Below, in pieces: positions 19,888-58,608 of a stretch of 64,000 nt of DNA. Numbering within the stretch: the stretch's first letter is position 1; every line of letters begins with the position of its first letter. This DNA comes from Escherichia phage EcWhh-1. The notes below the pieces were generated by a model that saw only the letters and a list, made by a program, of their open reading frames with translations, had not been told where the DNA came from and ran no database searches. Where the stretch lies: the sequence record MH791409.1; one strand, 5' to 3'. The position numbers were made by a program, and so were the translations under genes.

Positions 19888-20016
19888 CTTAATTCCTCGG
19901 TTGATAGCCTTATCGACTATCTTCCGAACTTCTCGTTTCTCGAGCCACACTAATAATAGCAAGCCTCCGAAAGAGAATAATAACAAACCTATAAAAAGCA
20001 ATAGAGGACCTAGCAT
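19885..20016 (-). CDS. single-pass membrane micro-protein, 43 aa
   Basis: Below cutoff. GAGGA SD. ATG 20016 overlaps the upstream stop by 7 nt. MLGPLLLFIGLLLFSFGGLLLLVWLEKREV... Confidence 0.45.
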   Translation of the reverse strand: MLGPLLLFIGLLLFSFGGLLLLVWLEKREVRKIVDKAINRGIK

Positions 20017-20903
20017 ACTACGTCCTCATAACGTGGCATTTCGTATTCAGAATGAATATTGGCACCGAAATAAATGAATTCAGCCAGACCAGGATGGAAT
20101 ACTAAACCTGGGTTCTCATGATAAATGATATGTGGTCTTGATTTCAGAATTTGATAATATTCAACCTTACTCGGTTTGAATTTAATAATCTCTACATCAG
20201 GACGATAGTCTTCGCGCTTAAATGAATCATTAGGGTCGGTGATATAAAGACGAGCACCTTCAGCGGCAGCTTGGTCTACAACTCTTTCGAATTGATAACA
20301 CTTATCCGAAATACGGAATGGATGGAAAATACCATCAATTTTAATAGGCGCTAGACCTTCAGAGTAACGCTCAATTACTGCAGGATTAATTACCTTTTGG
20401 TCTACAAAAATCTTATCAGAGGATGCACCTCGTGACATCAGGACGTCTTTCTGGCATTGATTCAAGACTGTAGTATAAAGTGAACGTTCAACTGAAGCCA
20501 CATCAATATCAATGAACTCGTCGATATAATAACGAGGAACTTCAGGGTCCATTGTGATATTAAAGTTGAATTGTACAGTATGAGCACCATCATAACCGGT
20601 GATATCGGTCACCAGTCCTGAGCAATCATAGTATTCGATTAGTGAATCGACTACAAACTCATTTTCAGACCAGAAATGTTTACGGGTTTCATAAGCATTT
20701 TCTTTATACCAAAGTGGTACGAAATTCAGTTCTGGGAATAATTCAATGCATTCTTTGATATCGCTCGAATTTCTAGGATAAGCCAGATAATCACCTGGAC
20801 GAGCACGATTTAAATGGAGTTGAAAATTACCGTCCTTAAGGACGGCATATTCACCTGTTTCGTAACTACGCATACTGAAAATAGGAACGATAAACAAACT
20901 CAT
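20010..20903 (-). CDS. orphan 297-aa protein in the beta-glucosyltransferase slot; candidate hmC glycosyltransferase
   Basis: ATGA-coupled to gene 42. Not alignable by eye to T4 beta-gt, except for a loose GT-B-like block IFHPFRISDKCYQFERVV versus T4 GGSFRSGQRESKMVEF. Confidence 0.35.
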   Translation of the reverse strand: MSLFIVPIFSMRSYETGEYAVLKDGNFQLHLNRARPGDYLAYPRNSSDIKECIELFPELNFVPLWYKENAYETRKHFWSENEFVVDSLIEYYDCSGLVTDITGYDGAHTVQFNFNITMDPEVPRYYIDEFIDIDVASVERSLYTTVLNQCQKDVLMSRGASSDKIFVDQKVINPAVIERYSEGLAPIKIDGIFHPFRISDKCYQFERVVDQAAAEGARLYITDPNDSFKREDYRPDVEIIKFKPSKVEYYQILKSRPHIIYHENPGLVFHPGLAEFIYFGANIHSEYEMPRYEDVVC

Positions 20904-21598
20904 TTCAGGAAACCTCGGACGTAGTCAAAATCACGTTCAAACACGTGTGCACTTACCATGGTGTGGGAATATGTACCTAAACCGACACCACACTGTTCAG
21001 CAATAAATGCCATCAGTTTACCCTGCAGATAGAAATCCAGCTGCATAACAACGGCGCAGTTTTGTGAACGCATATGAGTGTGTGCATACAGACGTCCATC
21101 ACGAATATAATATGTTACCGAATCGGTACACGGATATTCTAGGGATTCGTCAGAATCAAGGAGGGCTTGGTCTTGTTCTTGGAGAATTTGGAACACAACT
21201 CGTCTCGAGTTAGGCTTTTCTTTAAGCTCTTTAAGTAGGGCTGGGAGTTGGGCCACAATTCGAGGGCCATAGAAAGTGTTGAAGTTTGCAGGCAATACGT
21301 CACTTTTCGGCTTATCAATGAACTTAGCAACATTAGGGTATTCCTTAAATGCTTCGGCAGCGTCAGTACCACCAGAAATCATAAATTTCCAAAAGGATTC
21401 GGCATATTCATAACTAATACGATTGATACGTGGGTCGGTGAATTTATAGGTGCTTGCATCCAGTACTTCTACCGAAGCAGAACCAATTTCATAACAACGT
21501 CCGATACGAGAATCAACTGCAAACTGTGGAGCTTCCAGGATTTCTTCGTTCATTTGTTTAAATGCATTTTCAAAACTAACAGCGGTAATGTGTTTCAT
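20900..21598 (-). CDS. 42: thymidylate-synthase-family deoxypyrimidylate hydroxymethylase (divergent gp42)
   Basis: 232 aa. Conserved blocks: KPNSRR, YPCTDSVTYYIRDGRL, HMRSQN, SAHVF. Lies at the T4 gene 42 position, but is much more diverged from T4 gp42 than its neighbours are from their T4 counterparts. Confidence 0.7.
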   Translation of the reverse strand: MKHITAVSFENAFKQMNEEILEAPQFAVDSRIGRCYEIGSASVEVLDASTYKFTDPRINRISYEYAESFWKFMISGGTDAAEAFKEYPNVAKFIDKPKSDVLPANFNTFYGPRIVAQLPALLKELKEKPNSRRVVFQILQEQDQALLDSDESLEYPCTDSVTYYIRDGRLYAHTHMRSQNCAVVMQLDFYLQGKLMAFIAEQCGVGLGTYSHTMVSAHVFERDFDYVRGFLK

Positions 21599-22131
21599 TT
21601 ATTCACCTTATTTTCAATATATTCGTTCAGACGTTTTAATTCTACCATATCAACATTAAGCAAATTATTATGGCCGTCATGATTTAAGATTTTAAACACG
21701 TTTTCAAAACATGTTTCGTATTGCCGGATAGTTAGGTTGAACTCATCTTTGGTTAATTTAATAAGGTCGTCTTCGAAGTCTTCGTCTAATGGATTGCGAG
21801 TTAAAATAACCTCGATAACGTTAAATTCGGATTTAAACCCTTTCCAATCTTCCAGTTCTACATAAGGGTCCATTTCACCACGAAGGAATCCTGAGTAAAC
21901 AATATTACTTGGATAACCACGGTCAAGGATATAAACGAAATTAGGGTCTAAAAACTTATACAGAGTTTCAACTAAAGCCTTATCGTTATCAGTTCCTAAT
22001 GAAATACACTTGCCATTAATCTTTTTAGGAAAATCAATAAGGCGGTATTTCTTATTGGATAACAGATTTTTAATTAAAGTGGACTTCCCGGAATTATCCG
22101 GGCCGTCTATAACAATGATTTTTGGATTCAT
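21595..22131 (-). CDS. P-loop (thymidylate/dNMP kinase-like) kinase
   Basis: 178 aa. Walker A VIDGPDNSGKST, DRG motif. ATGA overlaps at both ends. Confidence 0.55.
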   Translation of the reverse strand: MNPKIIVIDGPDNSGKSTLIKNLLSNKKYRLIDFPKKINGKCISLGTDNDKALVETLYKFLDPNFVYILDRGYPSNIVYSGFLRGEMDPYVELEDWKGFKSEFNVIEVILTRNPLDEDFEDDLIKLTKDEFNLTIRQYETCFENVFKILNHDGHNNLLNVDMVELKRLNEYIENKVNK

Positions 22132-22511
22132 GGATGATAGGCCTTATAACTATCAAGAGTTCCTTCACGAACCATTTCTTTAAAGTGGTCAGGACGGATT
22201 GCTCGGTCATCGATGATAAAAGTATAACTCGGCTTATGCGTAAGCAGATTATGATATTTCAATCCAATCTTTTCAAGGTTCTTAACCAATGCAGGAACTA
22301 CTTCAACCAAGATTCGACCTGGGCCACATGAAGTCATGCCACGGGCAGTGAATAATGTAATCTCGTACCCTTCATCATAAAGCTTATTAATCATGGACAC
22401 CATTTCGGTGTCCGGTTTAAAGTTCTCATAATCACGGTCATGGTTCCAAATCGTGATTGTGTTATCGATATCAAAACATAAATGTGGCTTATTTTCTACT
22501 CGATGCGACAT
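22128..22511 (-). CDS. HAD-superfamily phosphatase
   Basis: Motif I FDIDNTIT, motif II LFTAR, motif III KPSYTFIIDDR. ATG 22511 is TAATG-coupled (alternative start ATG 22526). Confidence 0.6.
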   Translation of the reverse strand: MSHRVENKPHLCFDIDNTITIWNHDRDYENFKPDTEMVSMINKLYDEGYEITLFTARGMTSCGPGRILVEVVPALVKNLEKIGLKYHNLLTHKPSYTFIIDDRAIRPDHFKEMVREGTLDSYKAYHP

Positions 22512-24184
22512 TAAATTTTCTTCCATTGTTTGTGGAGTTCAGTAGAACCTGTAGGTTTATATTTTACACCAGTTTCCTGGTCAAGCAAAACCCACTTATC
22601 AGGACAACGAGTAATAATTTGAGCCGTGATAGGGTCACGAACTTCATCGACAAATTCACCAGTAATAAGCTTACGCTTATGAGGATGCCGCTTCAGCAGC
22701 ACACTCAGTTGATACAAACCGTTATAATAAGCACCCAGAGCTTTCAGAGGGTTATTCTTAAAGTAACCTGCCAGCGCCATCCAAATAACAGCAATCCAGA
22801 GCTTGTGCTTAAATGTGCACATAGGAATATCGTCTAAAGGCATAACCTTTTCGATATCAACGAATACACGAGTTCCGTTACGAGTTAATCCACCCCATAG
22901 AGGGTCTGAGTTAAATTTGTCATAGCCATCGATAGAATAAAGCACCTTAGCTTCATCATAAATCGCAGGGCCTTTAGAACTATTACCGAAATAACCACGT
23001 GGGTCGATGATTTTAATATCACCTTCGTCCGACAGCATAATATTACTGTAGTGCGGGTCGCCATGAATAAGTTGGTACGGTTCTTTATGTTCAGACAGAA
23101 TTTCTAGTGCATGGCGGAGAAGTTTTTCGGGGTCGCCTACTTTGAAATCGTTAACATAGGTAATGCCCTGTGGAGCAAAGCCTTCAATCAATCCGGCAAT
23201 AGAAGCATTACGAATAAGGACCTTGTCCAACACTTCTTTCTTAACATCGGAATACCATTGCTCATCGGACGGGTTATCGATAGTTCCACCGAATGAACGT
23301 AATGCACTAATGACCTTATAAACCATGAGGACTTTAGTTTCTTTGGACATAAACCGGTAGGCATCTGCCATGGTACGACCAAAGATACGTTCCATTTTAA
23401 TGAATTCGCCTGGAGAAAAGTCTACAATGCTAGGAACGAATTCAGAATCAATAGAATTATACCAATTGATTTCTTTAGATTGAATTTCTTTACCTAATTC
23501 GTTAGTTGGTACTTTAATAGCCAGATTCTCGGTGAACTCTAATTTATTAAATTCACGGTTAATTTCAGAATCTTCATGGGCCTTGGCAAGTTTCAATTTG
23601 TCACCGACATCAACTACAAAATCCAGTTTACGTTCAGTCAAATAGACCATTGAATCCAGGTTATCAGCAAGGTCTTCGCCATAATTAGAACGGTCGAAAC
23701 CTGTCCAATTGGCTACCTGATACAAACCAACTACACCGCCACCGGTACCAATTTCACGTAAGTACGGTTCTTCAAATGTAAAGCGACAGTCAGTTCCATA
23801 GGTATAACAATAGTCGTTACCCCATTCAACTTTATGACCGATAGGAATGATGTCACACCAGTTAAACAGGACATTATGGCCAATGATATCTTCGGCAATG
23901 CAATCGATAGCATGAGCTGAACCATTAGCAACATCAACGTTACGAATAGTGAATTTAGGCTTATCACCAGTAATCATGTTAATGGATTTAATATAGCCTT
24001 TAACGAGGTCGTTAAATTTGCTGTGAATAACCAGAATAATTTCATCTGATTGGTTACTATACAAATCATACAAATGTTTTAATACCGTATGTTGTTTGTA
24101 GTTAACCAATACCTTTGGGATTTCGTTAGTAATTGGATACAACCGTGAGCCAAGACCTGCGCCTAAAATAACAACCTTTTTCAT
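22511..24184 (-). CDS. bifunctional sugar-1-phosphate nucleotidyltransferase / APH-choline-kinase-like kinase
   Basis: Start at ATG 24184 (GAGGAA SD). N-terminal VILGAGLGSRLYPIT...PKVLV (GxGxRL NTase). C-terminal LIHGDPHYSNIM...IIDPRG (Brenner HGDxxxxN plus Dxx). Confidence 0.65.
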   Translation of the reverse strand: MKKVVILGAGLGSRLYPITNEIPKVLVNYKQHTVLKHLYDLYSNQSDEIILVIHSKFNDLVKGYIKSINMITGDKPKFTIRNVDVANGSAHAIDCIAEDIIGHNVLFNWCDIIPIGHKVEWGNDYCYTYGTDCRFTFEEPYLREIGTGGGVVGLYQVANWTGFDRSNYGEDLADNLDSMVYLTERKLDFVVDVGDKLKLAKAHEDSEINREFNKLEFTENLAIKVPTNELGKEIQSKEINWYNSIDSEFVPSIVDFSPGEFIKMERIFGRTMADAYRFMSKETKVLMVYKVISALRSFGGTIDNPSDEQWYSDVKKEVLDKVLIRNASIAGLIEGFAPQGITYVNDFKVGDPEKLLRHALEILSEHKEPYQLIHGDPHYSNIMLSDEGDIKIIDPRGYFGNSSKGPAIYDEAKVLYSIDGYDKFNSDPLWGGLTRNGTRVFVDIEKVMPLDDIPMCTFKHKLWIAVIWMALAGYFKNNPLKALGAYYNGLYQLSVLLKRHPHKRKLITGEFVDEVRDPITAQIITRCPDKWVLLDQETGVKYKPTGSTELHKQWKKI

Positions 24185-24244
24185 TATCTGTTCCTCAAGT
24201 GAATGTAGGTACATTATACACTATTTTTAATAAATTTCTATTGC

Positions 24245-55229: not shown

Positions 55230-55518
55230 ATTTCTTCCAGTCAGAAATCATATAAATCTCTTGGTCATATGTCAAGAGACTACGAGTTATAATACCCTTA
55301 CAAGGCCCTGAGATGAACTCGAGGGTGAAGTAAGGAACCTGTTTCATTAATCGGATGCTCGGGGCATGACATCTAAAACGAGAGCCCTTAAAGGGCCCTG
55401 TCATGAATACATATTCTAATGGATAGAAATAAGCATACTCGAAATTTTTAGTAAGGTCCTCTCTTCGAACCTTACGTGAGAAATAACAGAACTCAAAAAG
55501 TTCTTCATCAGTCATCAT
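55222..55518 (-). CDS. hypothetical protein, 98 aa
   Basis: Start moved to ATG 55518 (ATGA overlap with the upstream stop, AGGA SD). Confidence 0.5.
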   Translation of the reverse strand: MMTDEELFEFCYFSRKVRREDLTKNFEYAYFYPLEYVFMTGPFKGSRFRCHAPSIRLMKQVPYFTLEFISGPCKGIITRSLLTYDQEIYMISDWKKYV

Positions 55519-56042
55519 TGCATTCCTATCACAAAGAACAGAGGCAAAGGCTTGTCGCCTTGACACATAAATTTATTAATCATTACCTGGTAAGCTTCAT
55601 AGAACTTATCCATCGCCGGAAGGCGCATCGGCTCTTCGATAATAATCAATAATCGAGTAACAGATAGTCCACGATACTTATGGAAATTGTCTTCATCAAG
55701 GAAACTGCGCACAGTATCATAGACAACAAAACCAGGACCTTCGACTTGGAGATGTGGTTGTGCCTTAGAAACCTGTTTTATTACATTACAAATTTCCCGC
55801 GAGCGATGCGAAGAACTTGACATAACAATCACATCATTACCTTTGGAAACCCAATCAGCTGCGAACTGAGCAAGGGCACTTGTTTTACCTGTTTGGCGTC
55901 CGCCGTCAAGTCGAAGAGTACCAAACTCTTGCATTCTTGAAGCTGGTTCATACCAGGTGTATTGGTCTGAGTCTAAACGTTCAATGGCGCGTTCAGCGAA
56001 GGCGTGCATTAAGGTTAGATAAATGGGAGTTAAAAATTTCAT
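55515..56042 (-). CDS. small P-loop NTPase, 175 aa
   Basis: Walker A GGRQTGKTSA, Walker B-like LLIIIEEP. Confidence 0.55.
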   Translation of the reverse strand: MKFLTPIYLTLMHAFAERAIERLDSDQYTWYEPASRMQEFGTLRLDGGRQTGKTSALAQFAADWVSKGNDVIVMSSSSHRSREICNVIKQVSKAQPHLQVEGPGFVVYDTVRSFLDEDNFHKYRGLSVTRLLIIIEEPMRLPAMDKFYEAYQVMINKFMCQGDKPLPLFFVIGMQ

Positions 56043-56203
56043 AGTAGTCTCTTAGCGGTGGGGCCGTTCCTTGGCACATTAAGTCGTCCATGTATCCGTA
56101 TGTAAACCCTTTACCGCACTTGGGCTCGACCTTATTACAGGTAGGGAAAGGCCCATCACTCAGAGGACGCAACGTTCATGAGGAGAGGGTCGGCTTGCCT
56201 TTA

Positions 56204-56503
56204 TTAGAAAGAACCAGAACCTTTAATTGTGTTCTGACGACCTTTATTTTCTAATTCAGAGTGGTCGATTTCATATGCTTGTGCTACGCCAAAGGCCTTT
56301 TTAACTTTAGCTAAAGAACCTTTAGATGTAACAATATTAAAAGTATTACCTTTGGTAAAATCAACCAAATCGACTTGTACACCCTGTTTACCAAGGCTTG
56401 CTACAATAGCGTCAACATATTCTTGGTCTAAAGTGCCTTGGACTCCAATTTGAAATGCTTTAGGGGCTTTGGCTTCTGTAATAAATTCTTGATAAGTTTT
56501 CAT
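56204..56503 (-). CDS. head internal protein with capsid-targeting sequence
   Basis: 99 aa. N-terminus MKTYQEFITE|A equals the T4 IP capsid-targeting and gp21-cleavage consensus. The remainder is unlike T4 IPII/IPIII. Confidence 0.7.
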   Translation of the reverse strand: MKTYQEFITEAKAPKAFQIGVQGTLDQEYVDAIVASLGKQGVQVDLVDFTKGNTFNIVTSKGSLAKVKKAFGVAQAYEIDHSELENKGRQNTIKGSGSF

Positions 56504-56527
56504 ATTATTCCTTAAGTTGATAGAAGT

Positions 56528-56557
56528 ATTCTATCACGGATTTAATTAAGCGTAAAT
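56528..56557 (-). promoter_or_regulatory. early-type promoter (inside denV 3' end)
   Basis: ATTTAC (56557-56552), 18 nt, TAGAAT (56533-56528). Confidence 0.4.
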
Positions 56558-56962
56558 AGCCTTACCATAATGTTTGTACCAGGTAGGGCGCTGTGCAATT
56601 TTTTCGTCTAAACGGGCTTGTGAAATAGCGATAGAAGCTTCGTGAGGAACATAATCACCACGGAATTCCTGAGGAATATCACTAATGTCCTGGACCGTAG
56701 TATCCTTGATATTAAAACCACGTTTTAAACATTCGGCTATAAGCTCAATTTGTCGCTTACGTAAAAATTCAAGCTTATCGTAAAAGAATGTAACATGGCC
56801 TGTGCCAAGGATAAAAGTAGGACTGATTTTAAAATCACGAACACGTTTACCGTTAGCAACATGCTTACGAACTGCACCGAAAACACGTGGTAATTCACGA
56901 TATTCAGCCATTAAGTGTTGGTCAGCCAATTCAGATACTAAGGTAAGGTTGATACGAGTCAT
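56546..56962 (-). CDS. denV: endonuclease V (pyrimidine-dimer DNA glycosylase)
   Basis: 138 aa. Essentially identical in pattern to T4 DenV ([28 protein letters not shown]...). Confidence 0.97.
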
Positions 56963-56990
56963 TTTTTAATCTCCTGTAGTTGATAGGTCT

Positions 56991-57019
56991 ATAGTATCAT
57001 GCCTACAGGAGAAGTAAAC
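56991..57019 (-). promoter_or_regulatory. early-type promoter
   Basis: GTTTAC (57019-57014), 17 nt, TACTAT (56996-56991). Confidence 0.6.
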
Positions 57020-57418
57020 TTATTTGTAAGTTTTCATCCAATTCTTAAACAAAGCTGCGACGTCTTTCTCTTTAACGTTCAATTTAACGTCCAGCATTTT
57101 GCCACCAGCGGCACGTGTCTGACGAATCTTAGCCGTACCGGTTTCGCCATTCCACTCAACATAATACTGTCCGGTGTTCATAGCGATACCATCGCCATAG
57201 TCTTCGTTCTTAGAAGTAGTGAATGCTAACTTCATGGTCTTAGAGACACGGGCCTGCATGCCTGTCTGCAGAGCGTTACGAACGCGAATAACCTGAGGAG
57301 TGGCCTGGGTAAGGTTCTCATTCAGTTCTTCAGTGAACTCTTCGGATTCAAACATCGCCAAAAGTTCTTTAGATGCAGGAATTACATTCTCTGCGATAAA
57401 TTCATTATAAGTTTTCAT
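57020..57418 (-). CDS. head internal protein with capsid-targeting sequence
   Basis: 132 aa. N-terminus [10 protein letters not shown]|N. Lies just downstream of e, as ipIII does in T4. Confidence 0.7.
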
Positions 57419-57899
57419 ATGCTTTCCAAGTACCTGTTTTAAATGTAGAAATCACGCGCTTAGCACGATTAGGAGTTTGTCTATACCAACGAGATTGAGC
57501 CAGGTTAACTGCCGCATCGTCCCAACGTTTCTGTTGGAGCATACGTAAAGAGTTAGTGAACCCTGCTACGCCTGCTTCACCCATTTGGAAGACCATGTTA
57601 ATTAAAGCACAACGACGAACTTCGTCCAGTACATCATAAACAGGTTTCAATTTAGGATTACGCAGAATAGCTCTACGAGCATTTTCAACCGATCGGTTAA
57701 AGAGTTGCTCAGCTTCAGCCATAGTAATACGACCGTTGCAAACTCGACCCATAAGCTTATCAAGTTCAGCGCGAGCAACATCTTTAGATGGGTTCTTGGT
57801 AATCAACTGGCCAATGCCAATAGTCCAATAACCTTCGGTGTCTTTATAAAGATTTAAATCAAGACCTTCGTCTTGACGTAACATATCAAAAATATCCAT
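57405..57899 (-). CDS. e: lysozyme (endolysin)
   Basis: 164 aa. [13 protein letters not shown]...[13 protein letters not shown]...matches T4 lysozyme, including catalytic E11, D20 and T26. Confidence 0.97.
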
Positions 57900-57900
57900 A

Positions 57901-57929
57901 ATACCTCCTGAGTATAGGAGGTATTTATA
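57901..57929 (-). promoter_or_regulatory. gene e late promoter plus SD-sequestering hairpin
   Basis: Exact TATAAATA (57929-57922) overlaps the 5' arm of the hairpin ATACCTCCT-ATACTC-AGGAGGTAT (57924-57901), whose 3' arm is the SD. Confidence 0.7.
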
Positions 57930-58379
57930 TCAAAAGAGCGAATCTAAAACCTTAAACATCGACGGACCCATGACATATTCCCATTGAGGACGTTTAATCA
58001 AGGCGAACGCATCGAATTCAGGAACCGTGCGACCATCAGGGAACGTATGGTAAGCGGTACATTTGCAATCCTTGAACTGCTCGTGTTCCACAGGCACAGT
58101 ATATAAGAACAGATGTAGATTCTTATTGCTTGAATATTTGAACTCACCTAGGTCTTTCAGGAACGCAGGATCGTATGCTGTGAATCCGATCTCTTCTTCG
58201 GTTTCACGCATTGCCGCTTGAATAGGCTCTTCGCCCGGTTCGACATGGCCTTTAGGAATGTCCCATTTATGACGCATGTTCTCTGGATTACGAGAGCCTG
58301 TTACACGACCCATAACTAGTTCTTTATCAACGGTCATGAATAAAATACCGGCAGATAATTCTTTCGCTTTCTTACTCAT
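57930..58379 (-). CDS. nudE: Nudix hydrolase
   Basis: Start at ATG 58379 (MSKKAKE). Nudix box GHVEPGEEPIQAAMRETEEEIG. Lies at the T4 e.1 position. Confidence 0.85.
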   Translation of the reverse strand: MSKKAKELSAGILFMTVDKELVMGRVTGSRNPENMRHKWDIPKGHVEPGEEPIQAAMRETEEEIGFTAYDPAFLKDLGEFKYSSNKNLHLFLYTVPVEHEQFKDCKCTAYHTFPDGRTVPEFDAFALIKRPQWEYVMGPSMFKVLDSLF

Positions 58380-58608
58380 CGTCTCGTTCCCATGATTGTT
58401 TAAAGATATCTCGTATAATAATTTCAACACATGTTTCTGTTGACGGACTTTCACTATCAGATATTTGGACCATATAATCAGAAATAGGTCGGAACATATC
58501 CAAGTCGCTTTCTAAATCTTCTTTGATTTTCTCTTCTGATGTTCCGGTGTCATAGGAATACAGATAAGAATCACATGACTCGGATTTAATATAAATTGCA
58601 ATACTCAT
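58372..58608 (-). CDS. hypothetical acidic protein, 78 aa
   Basis: ATGA overlap with the upstream gene. Confidence 0.5.
   Translation of the reverse strand: MSIAIYIKSESCDSYLYSYDTGTSEEKIKEDLESDLDMFRPISDYMVQISDSESPSTETCVEIIIRDIFKQSWERDDE

Follow-up and report, generated by a model that had tools for sequence, protein, structure and literature searches.

The 64,000-nucleotide stretch of Escherichia phage EcWhh-1 considered here (MH791409.1; the whole of it is referred to as the window) carries two small open reading frames (ORFs) on the minus strand, A (56204–56503, 99 aa) and B (57020–57418, 132 aa), and both begin with the capsid targeting sequence (CTS) of T4-type internal proteins. The gene between them is denV, encoding endonuclease V, a pyrimidine-dimer glycosylase (56546–56962, minus strand; Pfam Pyr_excise PF03013, 1.3e-14; PHROG 1183, 9e-63), and upstream B adjoins gene e for a T4-type lysozyme (57405–57899, minus strand; Pfam Phage_lysozyme), whose stop overlaps the start of B by 14 nucleotides. 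The positions and the arrangement around denV given in a first-pass annotation of this DNA are thus confirmed, with both ORFs on the minus strand. A belongs to the Ip7 family of internal head proteins (PHROG 2667) and B to the family of JS98 orf114 (PHROG 15461).

The first-pass annotation had also claimed that both proteins start with the T4 targeting and prohead-protease cleavage consensus, and this agrees with T4 IPII and IPIII (from NC_000866), which both begin MKTYQEFIAEA and match A and B at residues 1–10. The N-terminus of A reads MKTYQEFITEAKAP, and its first ten residues (MKTYQEFITE, 56474–56503, minus strand) end at a predicted cleavage site ITE/A, where the slash marks the cut; the corresponding segment of B (57389–57418, minus strand) ends at the predicted prohead-protease site IAE/N. 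In T4, positions 4 and 7 of the CTS serve targeting and positions 8 and 10 processing, and ten N-terminal residues of IPIII suffice for the packaging of foreign proteins (PMC9026906). Both A and B carry Y4, F7, I8 and E10, in agreement with the aromatic residues at positions 4 and 7, Ile or Leu at position 8 and Glu at position 10 that characterize a CTS. In alignments of the A family, M1, T3, E6, F7, I8 and E10 are invariant, K2 is invariant in one alignment and nearly so in another, and Y4 is replaced by Phe in RB32 Ip7. As for B, residues M1, K2, T3, Y4, E6, F7, I8 and E10 are invariant in a 12-sequence alignment that extends down to 56% identity; the homologue in Erwinia phage Cronus retains MKTYKEFLAE/S, and a 194-aa metagenomic homologue has MKSFDQYIME/S ahead of an extra domain. 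Across sixteen CTS genes compared, the leader codons differ synonymously, with T3 encoded by all four of its codons and the codons for Y4, I8 and E10 varying as well, which argues that selection acts on the peptide. Furthermore, A and B are the only ORFs with the leader in strict and relaxed six-frame scans of the 64-kb window, so the leader is not a recurrent chance motif.

Beyond the leader, both proteins have a small and mildly basic remainder, with a calculated mass of 9.5 kDa and isoelectric point (pI) of 9.0 for residues 11–99 of A, and 13.7 kDa and pI 8.8 for residues 11–132 of B, as compared with pI 9.6–9.7 for the mature T4 proteins IPII* and IPIII*. They also lie in the e–denV region, which is the ipIII/ipII site of T4 and thus an internal-protein cassette locus. 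Taken together, the leader, the key residues, the locus and the mature part support an assignment of A and B to the T4-type internal proteins at the level of sequence.

The gene order of the region is best appreciated from related phages. A megablast search with positions 56000–58000 matched 562 phage records, the closest being Enterobacteria phage vB_EcoM_IME281 (Dhakavirus, Tevenvirinae) with 96.8% identity over the full 2 kb, and next to it QL01, MX01, JS10 and JS98 with 94–95%; the window therefore belongs to a Dhakavirus of the JS98 group. The order in IME281 is exactly that of the window. In JS98, the order is e–ipIII–orf114–denV–Ip7-like, and orf114 is thus separated from e by an inserted ipIII orthologue that is missing, without replacement, from the window and IME281. 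The T4 order is e–ipIII–ipII–denV, and that of Klebsiella phage Marfa e–B–ipII–denV–ipIII–Ip7-like. A B-family gene follows directly after e in five cases, namely the window, IME281, Marfa, Cronus and the metagenomic contig L010.

The proteins that occupy the T4 site, IPII and IPIII, share with A and B a nearly identical ten-residue CTS, the same e–denV locus and strand and a small basic mature form, and by analogy the predicted pathway would also be common to them, i.e., targeting to the core, cleavage after Glu10 by the prohead protease gp21, and injection. The remark in the first-pass annotation that the mature parts are unlike IPII and IPIII holds as well: BLASTP aligns only residues 1–12 to 1–19, profile–profile comparison with hhalign recovers only the leader, and the absence of similarity beyond residues 12–19 means that A and B are not orthologues of the two T4 proteins.

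The same annotation had described both bodies as novel, which does not apply to A. Protein A has a full-length match to PHROG 2667, a family annotated "internal head protein" (5.4e-43, positions 1–99 of 101), and is 49% identical to RB32 Ip7 in a direct comparison (E = 3e-29). With the leader removed, the body of A finds 283 phage records by tblastn, including Ip7 of RB32 and T2 (about 48% identity), and its orthologues in JS98, IME281 and many other phages are already annotated as internal head proteins. A is consequently a member of a named family, a full-length homologue of the T-even Ip7 proteins (RB32, T2, K3 and RB15) with the same length and the same leader. An AlphaFold2 model of A with a predicted local distance difference test score (pLDDT) of 74.5 has a β-α-β-β-α-β domain, for which an RRM/ACT-like fold is predicted, and a Foldseek search of BFVD with this model returned a single match, the "Ip7 protein" of phage MX01. 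Pfam and NCBIfam gave a match for neither A nor B. The genomic position of A differs from that of its T-even homologues: in RB32 and T2, Ip7 is encoded in the ipI locus, with the tRNA genes on one side and 57B on the other and, in RB32, with Ip5 and Ip9 next to it. The gene for A, by contrast, follows denV downstream and has an early-type promoter of its own. Some Dhakaviruses, e.g., MX01, carry both copies.

For B, "novel-bodied" stands only in the sense that the family appears never before to have been labelled as internal proteins. B is 98% identical to JS98 orf114 and matches PHROG 15461 over positions 1–132 of 132 (1e-91), a family without assigned function (annotated "unknown function"), to which the present analysis adds the interpretation as CTS-bearing internal proteins. 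The body of B was found in 49 phage records, and all among the matches listed are named "hypothetical protein". Carriers are Dhakaviruses, Klebsiella phages of the Marfavirus type (about 85% identity), and Serratia phage 4S and Erwinia phage Cronus (about 50%). The family is very narrow, with 17 clusters in a search of 5.8 billion proteins and only four true relatives in a hidden Markov model search of 1.84 billion representative proteins. The AlphaFold2 model of B from the 12-sequence alignment is poor (pLDDT 52.8), and the BFVD search gave only B's own family, with no reliable structural or PDB relative, and for these reasons a fold assignment is not possible. Two weak similarities were considered and set aside. 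Residues 35–132 gave a PDB profile match to the outer domain of Salmonella flagellin (about residues 276–348, E about 0.02) that was not strengthened by a broader domain profile and is probably due to chance, and weak matches to two large repeat proteins look like a common β-hairpin motif and are likewise probably fortuitous.

The charge distribution and motif content of B indicate a division of the protein into three parts. Between the CTS and the conserved domain lies an acidic spacer (residues 11–34, 57317–57388, minus strand) with a net charge of −6, ending in LNE/N, and it is followed by a conserved basic domain (residues 35–132, 57023–57316, minus strand) with pI 9.9 and a net charge of +8, which is presumed to be the mature cargo. 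In a scan for (L/I)xE motifs, A has only the one in its leader, and B has two, IAE/N at Glu10 and LNE/N at Glu34. Residues L32, E34 and N35 of B are invariant in the 12-sequence alignment, and in distant homologues with a shortened or missing spacer the conserved domain still has an LxE site a few residues ahead of it, which in Cronus is the leader's own and in the 194-aa homologue LTE/S. For T4, it has been documented that propeptides can be cut more than once and that Alt contains an LTE site (PMC5694885). We therefore propose as a hypothesis that the propeptide of B comprises 34 residues in two pieces, the CTS and the acidic spacer.

Transcription is deduced here from motif matches. An exact match to the T4 late-promoter consensus, TATAAATA, one of four in the window, is located upstream of e (57922–57929, minus strand), at the same position as in T4 and JS98. 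It is overlapped by a hairpin (57900–57925, minus strand; −14.1 kcal/mol, z = −3.4) in which the ribosome-binding site of e is sequestered, an arrangement also present upstream of T4 e and in JS98. The late promoter probably drives a transcript of e and B, and because the ATG of B lies 14 nucleotides inside e, the late e transcript would also serve for the synthesis of B, as suits a component of the head. Both denV and A have in front of them an early-type promoter (TTTAC-N16/17-TAnnAT) within a stem-loop. That of A, TTTACG-17-TAGAAT with an extended TG (56528–56556, minus strand), was found by consensus scan and is identical in JS98; the 7-bp stem-loop over its −10 element is weak (z = −1.4). 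The T4 genes ipII and ipIII are preceded by the same type of element, an early-type promoter in a stem-loop. Such promoter-early stem-loop (PeSL) elements, with consensus TTTACW-N17-TAYWAT, have been proposed to shuffle cassettes in T4-like phages, internal-protein loci included (PMC4122927). Upstream of denV, a PeSL-type cassette (56970–57018, minus strand) is nearly identical to that of T4 denV and fits the consensus, but with 16 nucleotides between the hexamers; its stem (56970–57012) covers the denV ribosome-binding site (−18.1 kcal/mol, z = −4.3).

Some further observations concern these control elements and the genes next to them. The hairpins on the ribosome-binding sites of e and denV, each with a promoter inside, resemble the known translational control of T4 lysozyme, and transcripts initiated further upstream would be translationally silent for both genes. 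DenV is 98% identical in amino acid sequence to T4 DenV, as compared with 75% for the flanking e and 59% for nudE (57930–58454, minus strand), and the promoter and stem-loop cassette upstream of denV is almost base for base as in T4; this cassette looks recently exchanged. At 57405–57418, the end of e (AYENL before the stop) and the start of B (MKTYN) use the same 14 nucleotides in different frames. This junction is also found in IME281 and Marfa, and contig L010 has a 4-nucleotide overlap. JS98 e, which is followed by ipIII, ends otherwise (AAYR before the stop). The sequence at the end of T4 e is similar, TATAAAAATCTATAA. The 5' end of internal-protein genes and the 3' end of e may recombine via such microhomology. 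On the other side of A, the vs.8-like ORF (55515–56042, minus strand; PHROG 1488, with weak P-loop and terminase-N matches) is 42% identical to JS98 vs.8 as compared with 96–100% for neighbouring genes, which suggests an allele replacement within the genus. The 160-nucleotide spacer between this ORF and A (56043–56203) has a GC fraction of about 0.45–0.48, above the value of about 0.35 nearby, but neither an Rfam match nor a significant predicted fold (z = 0.16). Outside the window, the ipI locus of IME281, from 57B to the tRNA region (L009 2904–3690), contains three further CTS ORFs, among them gp131 (MKTYSEFLTEA..., 69 aa), which is annotated only as hypothetical, and phages of this type thus carry at least five CTS proteins.

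Indirect support for packaging comes from related phages, in whose virions a CTS protein probably encoded at this site has been detected. In CsCl-purified virions of Klebsiella phages ValerieMcCarty03/04, a CTS protein that differs from A and B and is listed beside the lysozyme gene was represented by 66 spectral matches (PMC13119998). Its counterpart in ValerieMcCarty05 occupies the slot directly after e, and from this map the protein of ValerieMcCarty03/04 can be placed, by inference, in the same slot. No Ip7-like peptides are found among the supplementary matches listed for these phages. The "ipII protein" gp125 of ValerieMcCarty05 (L007 2363–2665), in which an IpII-like N-terminal half is joined to an Ip7-like C-terminal half, spans unresolved bases, and was rejected as an assembly-gap artefact that does not represent a natural fusion.

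The suspicion voiced in the first-pass annotation, that this DNA is unusually modified, fits a set of ThyA-like and sugar-nucleotide genes at about 20.0–24.2 kb of the window. The cluster (20010–24214, minus strand) occupies the position of gene 42 and beta-gt in T4 and resembles the sugar-modification cluster of RB69. It includes a ThyA-like gene (20900–21598, minus strand; Pfam Thymidylat_synt, 3.9e-14), a P-loop kinase-like gene (21595–22131, minus strand) and a 567-aa nucleotidyl-transferase/kinase fusion (22511–24214, minus strand); annotations in the counterpart region of IME281 include phosphoheptose isomerase and thymidylate kinase. RB69-type arabinosylation of 5-hydroxycytosine has been predicted in a 2026 study for Dhakaviruses and Marfaviruses (PMC13326640), which together hold most copies of B, and the gene content of the cluster fits the arabinosyl-5-hydroxycytosine pathway predicted for the former. 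In T4, a different GmrSD type IV enzyme is blocked by each of the proteins Ip1, Ip2 and Ip3, without cross-protection (Silas et al. 2025, PMC12373910), and the T-even internal proteins have been reviewed as a diverse anti-defence set with only the CTS in common (PMC3012670). The suggestion that T4-type internal proteins act as injected anti-restriction factors is now the mainstream view. IPI* of T4, which inhibits the GmrS/GmrD type IV restriction enzyme, belongs to the same class of small injected proteins delivered by a CTS, and can serve as a functional model for A and B.

The present analysis shows the conserved leader, the families to which A and B belong, their neighbouring genes and the promoter motifs; packaging, cleavage sites, injection and an anti-nuclease role are inferred, as follows. 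The ten-residue N-terminal CTS would dock A and B onto the scaffolding core during prohead assembly, and a T4-type prohead protease, the gp21 homologue, would then cut after Glu10, at ITE/A in A and IAE/N in B. B would probably be cut also after Glu34, at LNE/N, so that the acidic 24-residue spacer is shed and the basic 98-residue domain is left. New N-termini would be expected at A11 in A (AKAPK...) and at N11 and/or N35 (NLTQATPQ...) in B. The mature proteins would remain in the DNA-filled head and be injected with the genome, and in the host each would most likely bind and block one nuclease that attacks sugar-modified cytosine DNA. The leading candidate for a target is a GmrSD-type type IV enzyme, mirroring Ip1, Ip2 and Ip3 of T4. 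The activity of these three proteins against GmrSD enzymes, together with the predicted arabinosylation of the DNA, makes injected nuclease inhibitors the leading hypothesis for A and B. Packaging and processing of the two proteins are, on the sequence evidence, highly probable. An anti-restriction role is plausible by analogy; once packaging is granted, we consider an anti-nuclease function nearly as probable as its opposite, and the reading as a whole, in which T4-type internal proteins are packed, trimmed and injected and each block one host nuclease, has in our judgement an even chance of being correct. A more specific version, in which B inhibits a nuclease that targets arabinosylated 5-hydroxycytosine DNA, and its two-part propeptide includes a spacer that masks the basic cargo until prohead maturation, would be a speculative extension with a rather low probability.

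Several observations weigh against the reading as packed, trimmed and injected nuclease inhibitors. The residue after the predicted cut in B is Asn and not the usual Ala or Ser. Sequence or fold similarity of A and B to the GmrSD inhibitors IPI*, Ip2 and Ip3 was looked for and not encountered, and virion proteomics or N-terminal data for A, B or close homologues were not found in the searchable literature on JS98, Dhakavirus, Marfavirus and Ip7. In published screens of ip4–10, including ip7, against GmrSD variants, no reproducible inhibition was seen, and an apparent effect of ip7 on CLS_011 failed to reproduce. T2 carries Ip7 and yet is restricted by GmrSD-ECOR17 and GmrSD-ECOR21 (restriction data from PMC12373910). 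Finally, B is 91% identical to its Marfa homologue, as compared with 77% for e and 70% for DenV, a degree of conservation more in keeping with recent transfer or strong constraint than with the fast divergence of an arms race.

The same conservation would suit packaged proteins that serve mainly inside the head, in assembly of the core or head or in neutralizing the charge of the DNA, as has been reported for T4 IPIII, and that have no specific host target after injection. Such a role also agrees with the lysine-rich, basic character of mature A and B, with the contacts between lysines of internal proteins and DNA phosphates (PMC3012670), and with T4 IPIII mutants, which build heads more slowly and have about 40% of the normal burst (PMC9026906). 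Nevertheless, internal proteins are dispensable in T4 (PMC9026906), the window and IME281 have lost ipIII and put nothing in its place, all three T4 internal proteins have specific anti-restriction targets (PMC12373910), and a generic counter-ion has no need of a conserved folded domain; we regard a role mainly inside the head as unlikely. The failure of Ip7 to inhibit GmrSD reproducibly leads in another direction, to injected effectors aimed at something other than a type IV enzyme, e.g., other nuclease classes, abortive-infection or toxin systems, or host takeover. Alt, a CTS-bearing head protein of T4, is an ADP-ribosyltransferase and not a nuclease inhibitor, and the RRM/ACT-like fold predicted for A would suit many binding partners. 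Against this, the known targets that small T4 internal proteins inhibit are without exception GmrSD enzymes (PMC12373910), and the GmrSD screens covered a fraction of the diversity and only phages with glucosyl-hydroxymethylcytosine, and we judge a target of this other kind to be improbable.

That A and B are not packaged at all, and act in the cytoplasm with an MKTY...E start that is a by-product of cassette recombination via the conserved 5' ends of internal-protein genes, is the least probable of the explanations, and we give it very little credence. Conserved flanks and PeSL elements are known sites of the recombination by which internal-protein genes are shuffled (PMC4122927), and since B begins inside the end of e, e limits which nucleotides this part of B can have. 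Yet the leader is maintained at the protein level through synonymous changes, it persists where there is no overlap with e (Cronus and JS98) or an overlap of only 4 nucleotides (L010), and in T4 the ten residues of a CTS by themselves package foreign proteins (PMC9026906).

With respect to the biology of these phages, CTS proteins that flank denV are an expected feature, and the anti-restriction idea is a standard expectation and not new. Nor does the current picture change: the exchange of varied cargo behind a constant leader is already familiar in T4-like phages. Internal proteins are the first-strike cargo of the phage, numbering about 360 copies per head in T4, where each of the three is now known to disable a different type IV restriction enzyme. 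Phage-therapy work makes use of JS98-type phages, which are predicted to carry an RB69-like arabinose modification; to our knowledge the enzymes that attack this modification, and the phage counters to them, are largely unmapped. Proteins of the orf114 type, as probable injected cargo, provide a conserved and easily testable candidate for that search, and the internal-protein reading of the family would correct the annotation in about 50 genomes. If B is indeed an inhibitor of an arabinosyl-DNA nuclease and is delivered by a two-part propeptide, the inhibitor and its nuclease would form a new pair, and the processing of internal proteins would have a further variant.

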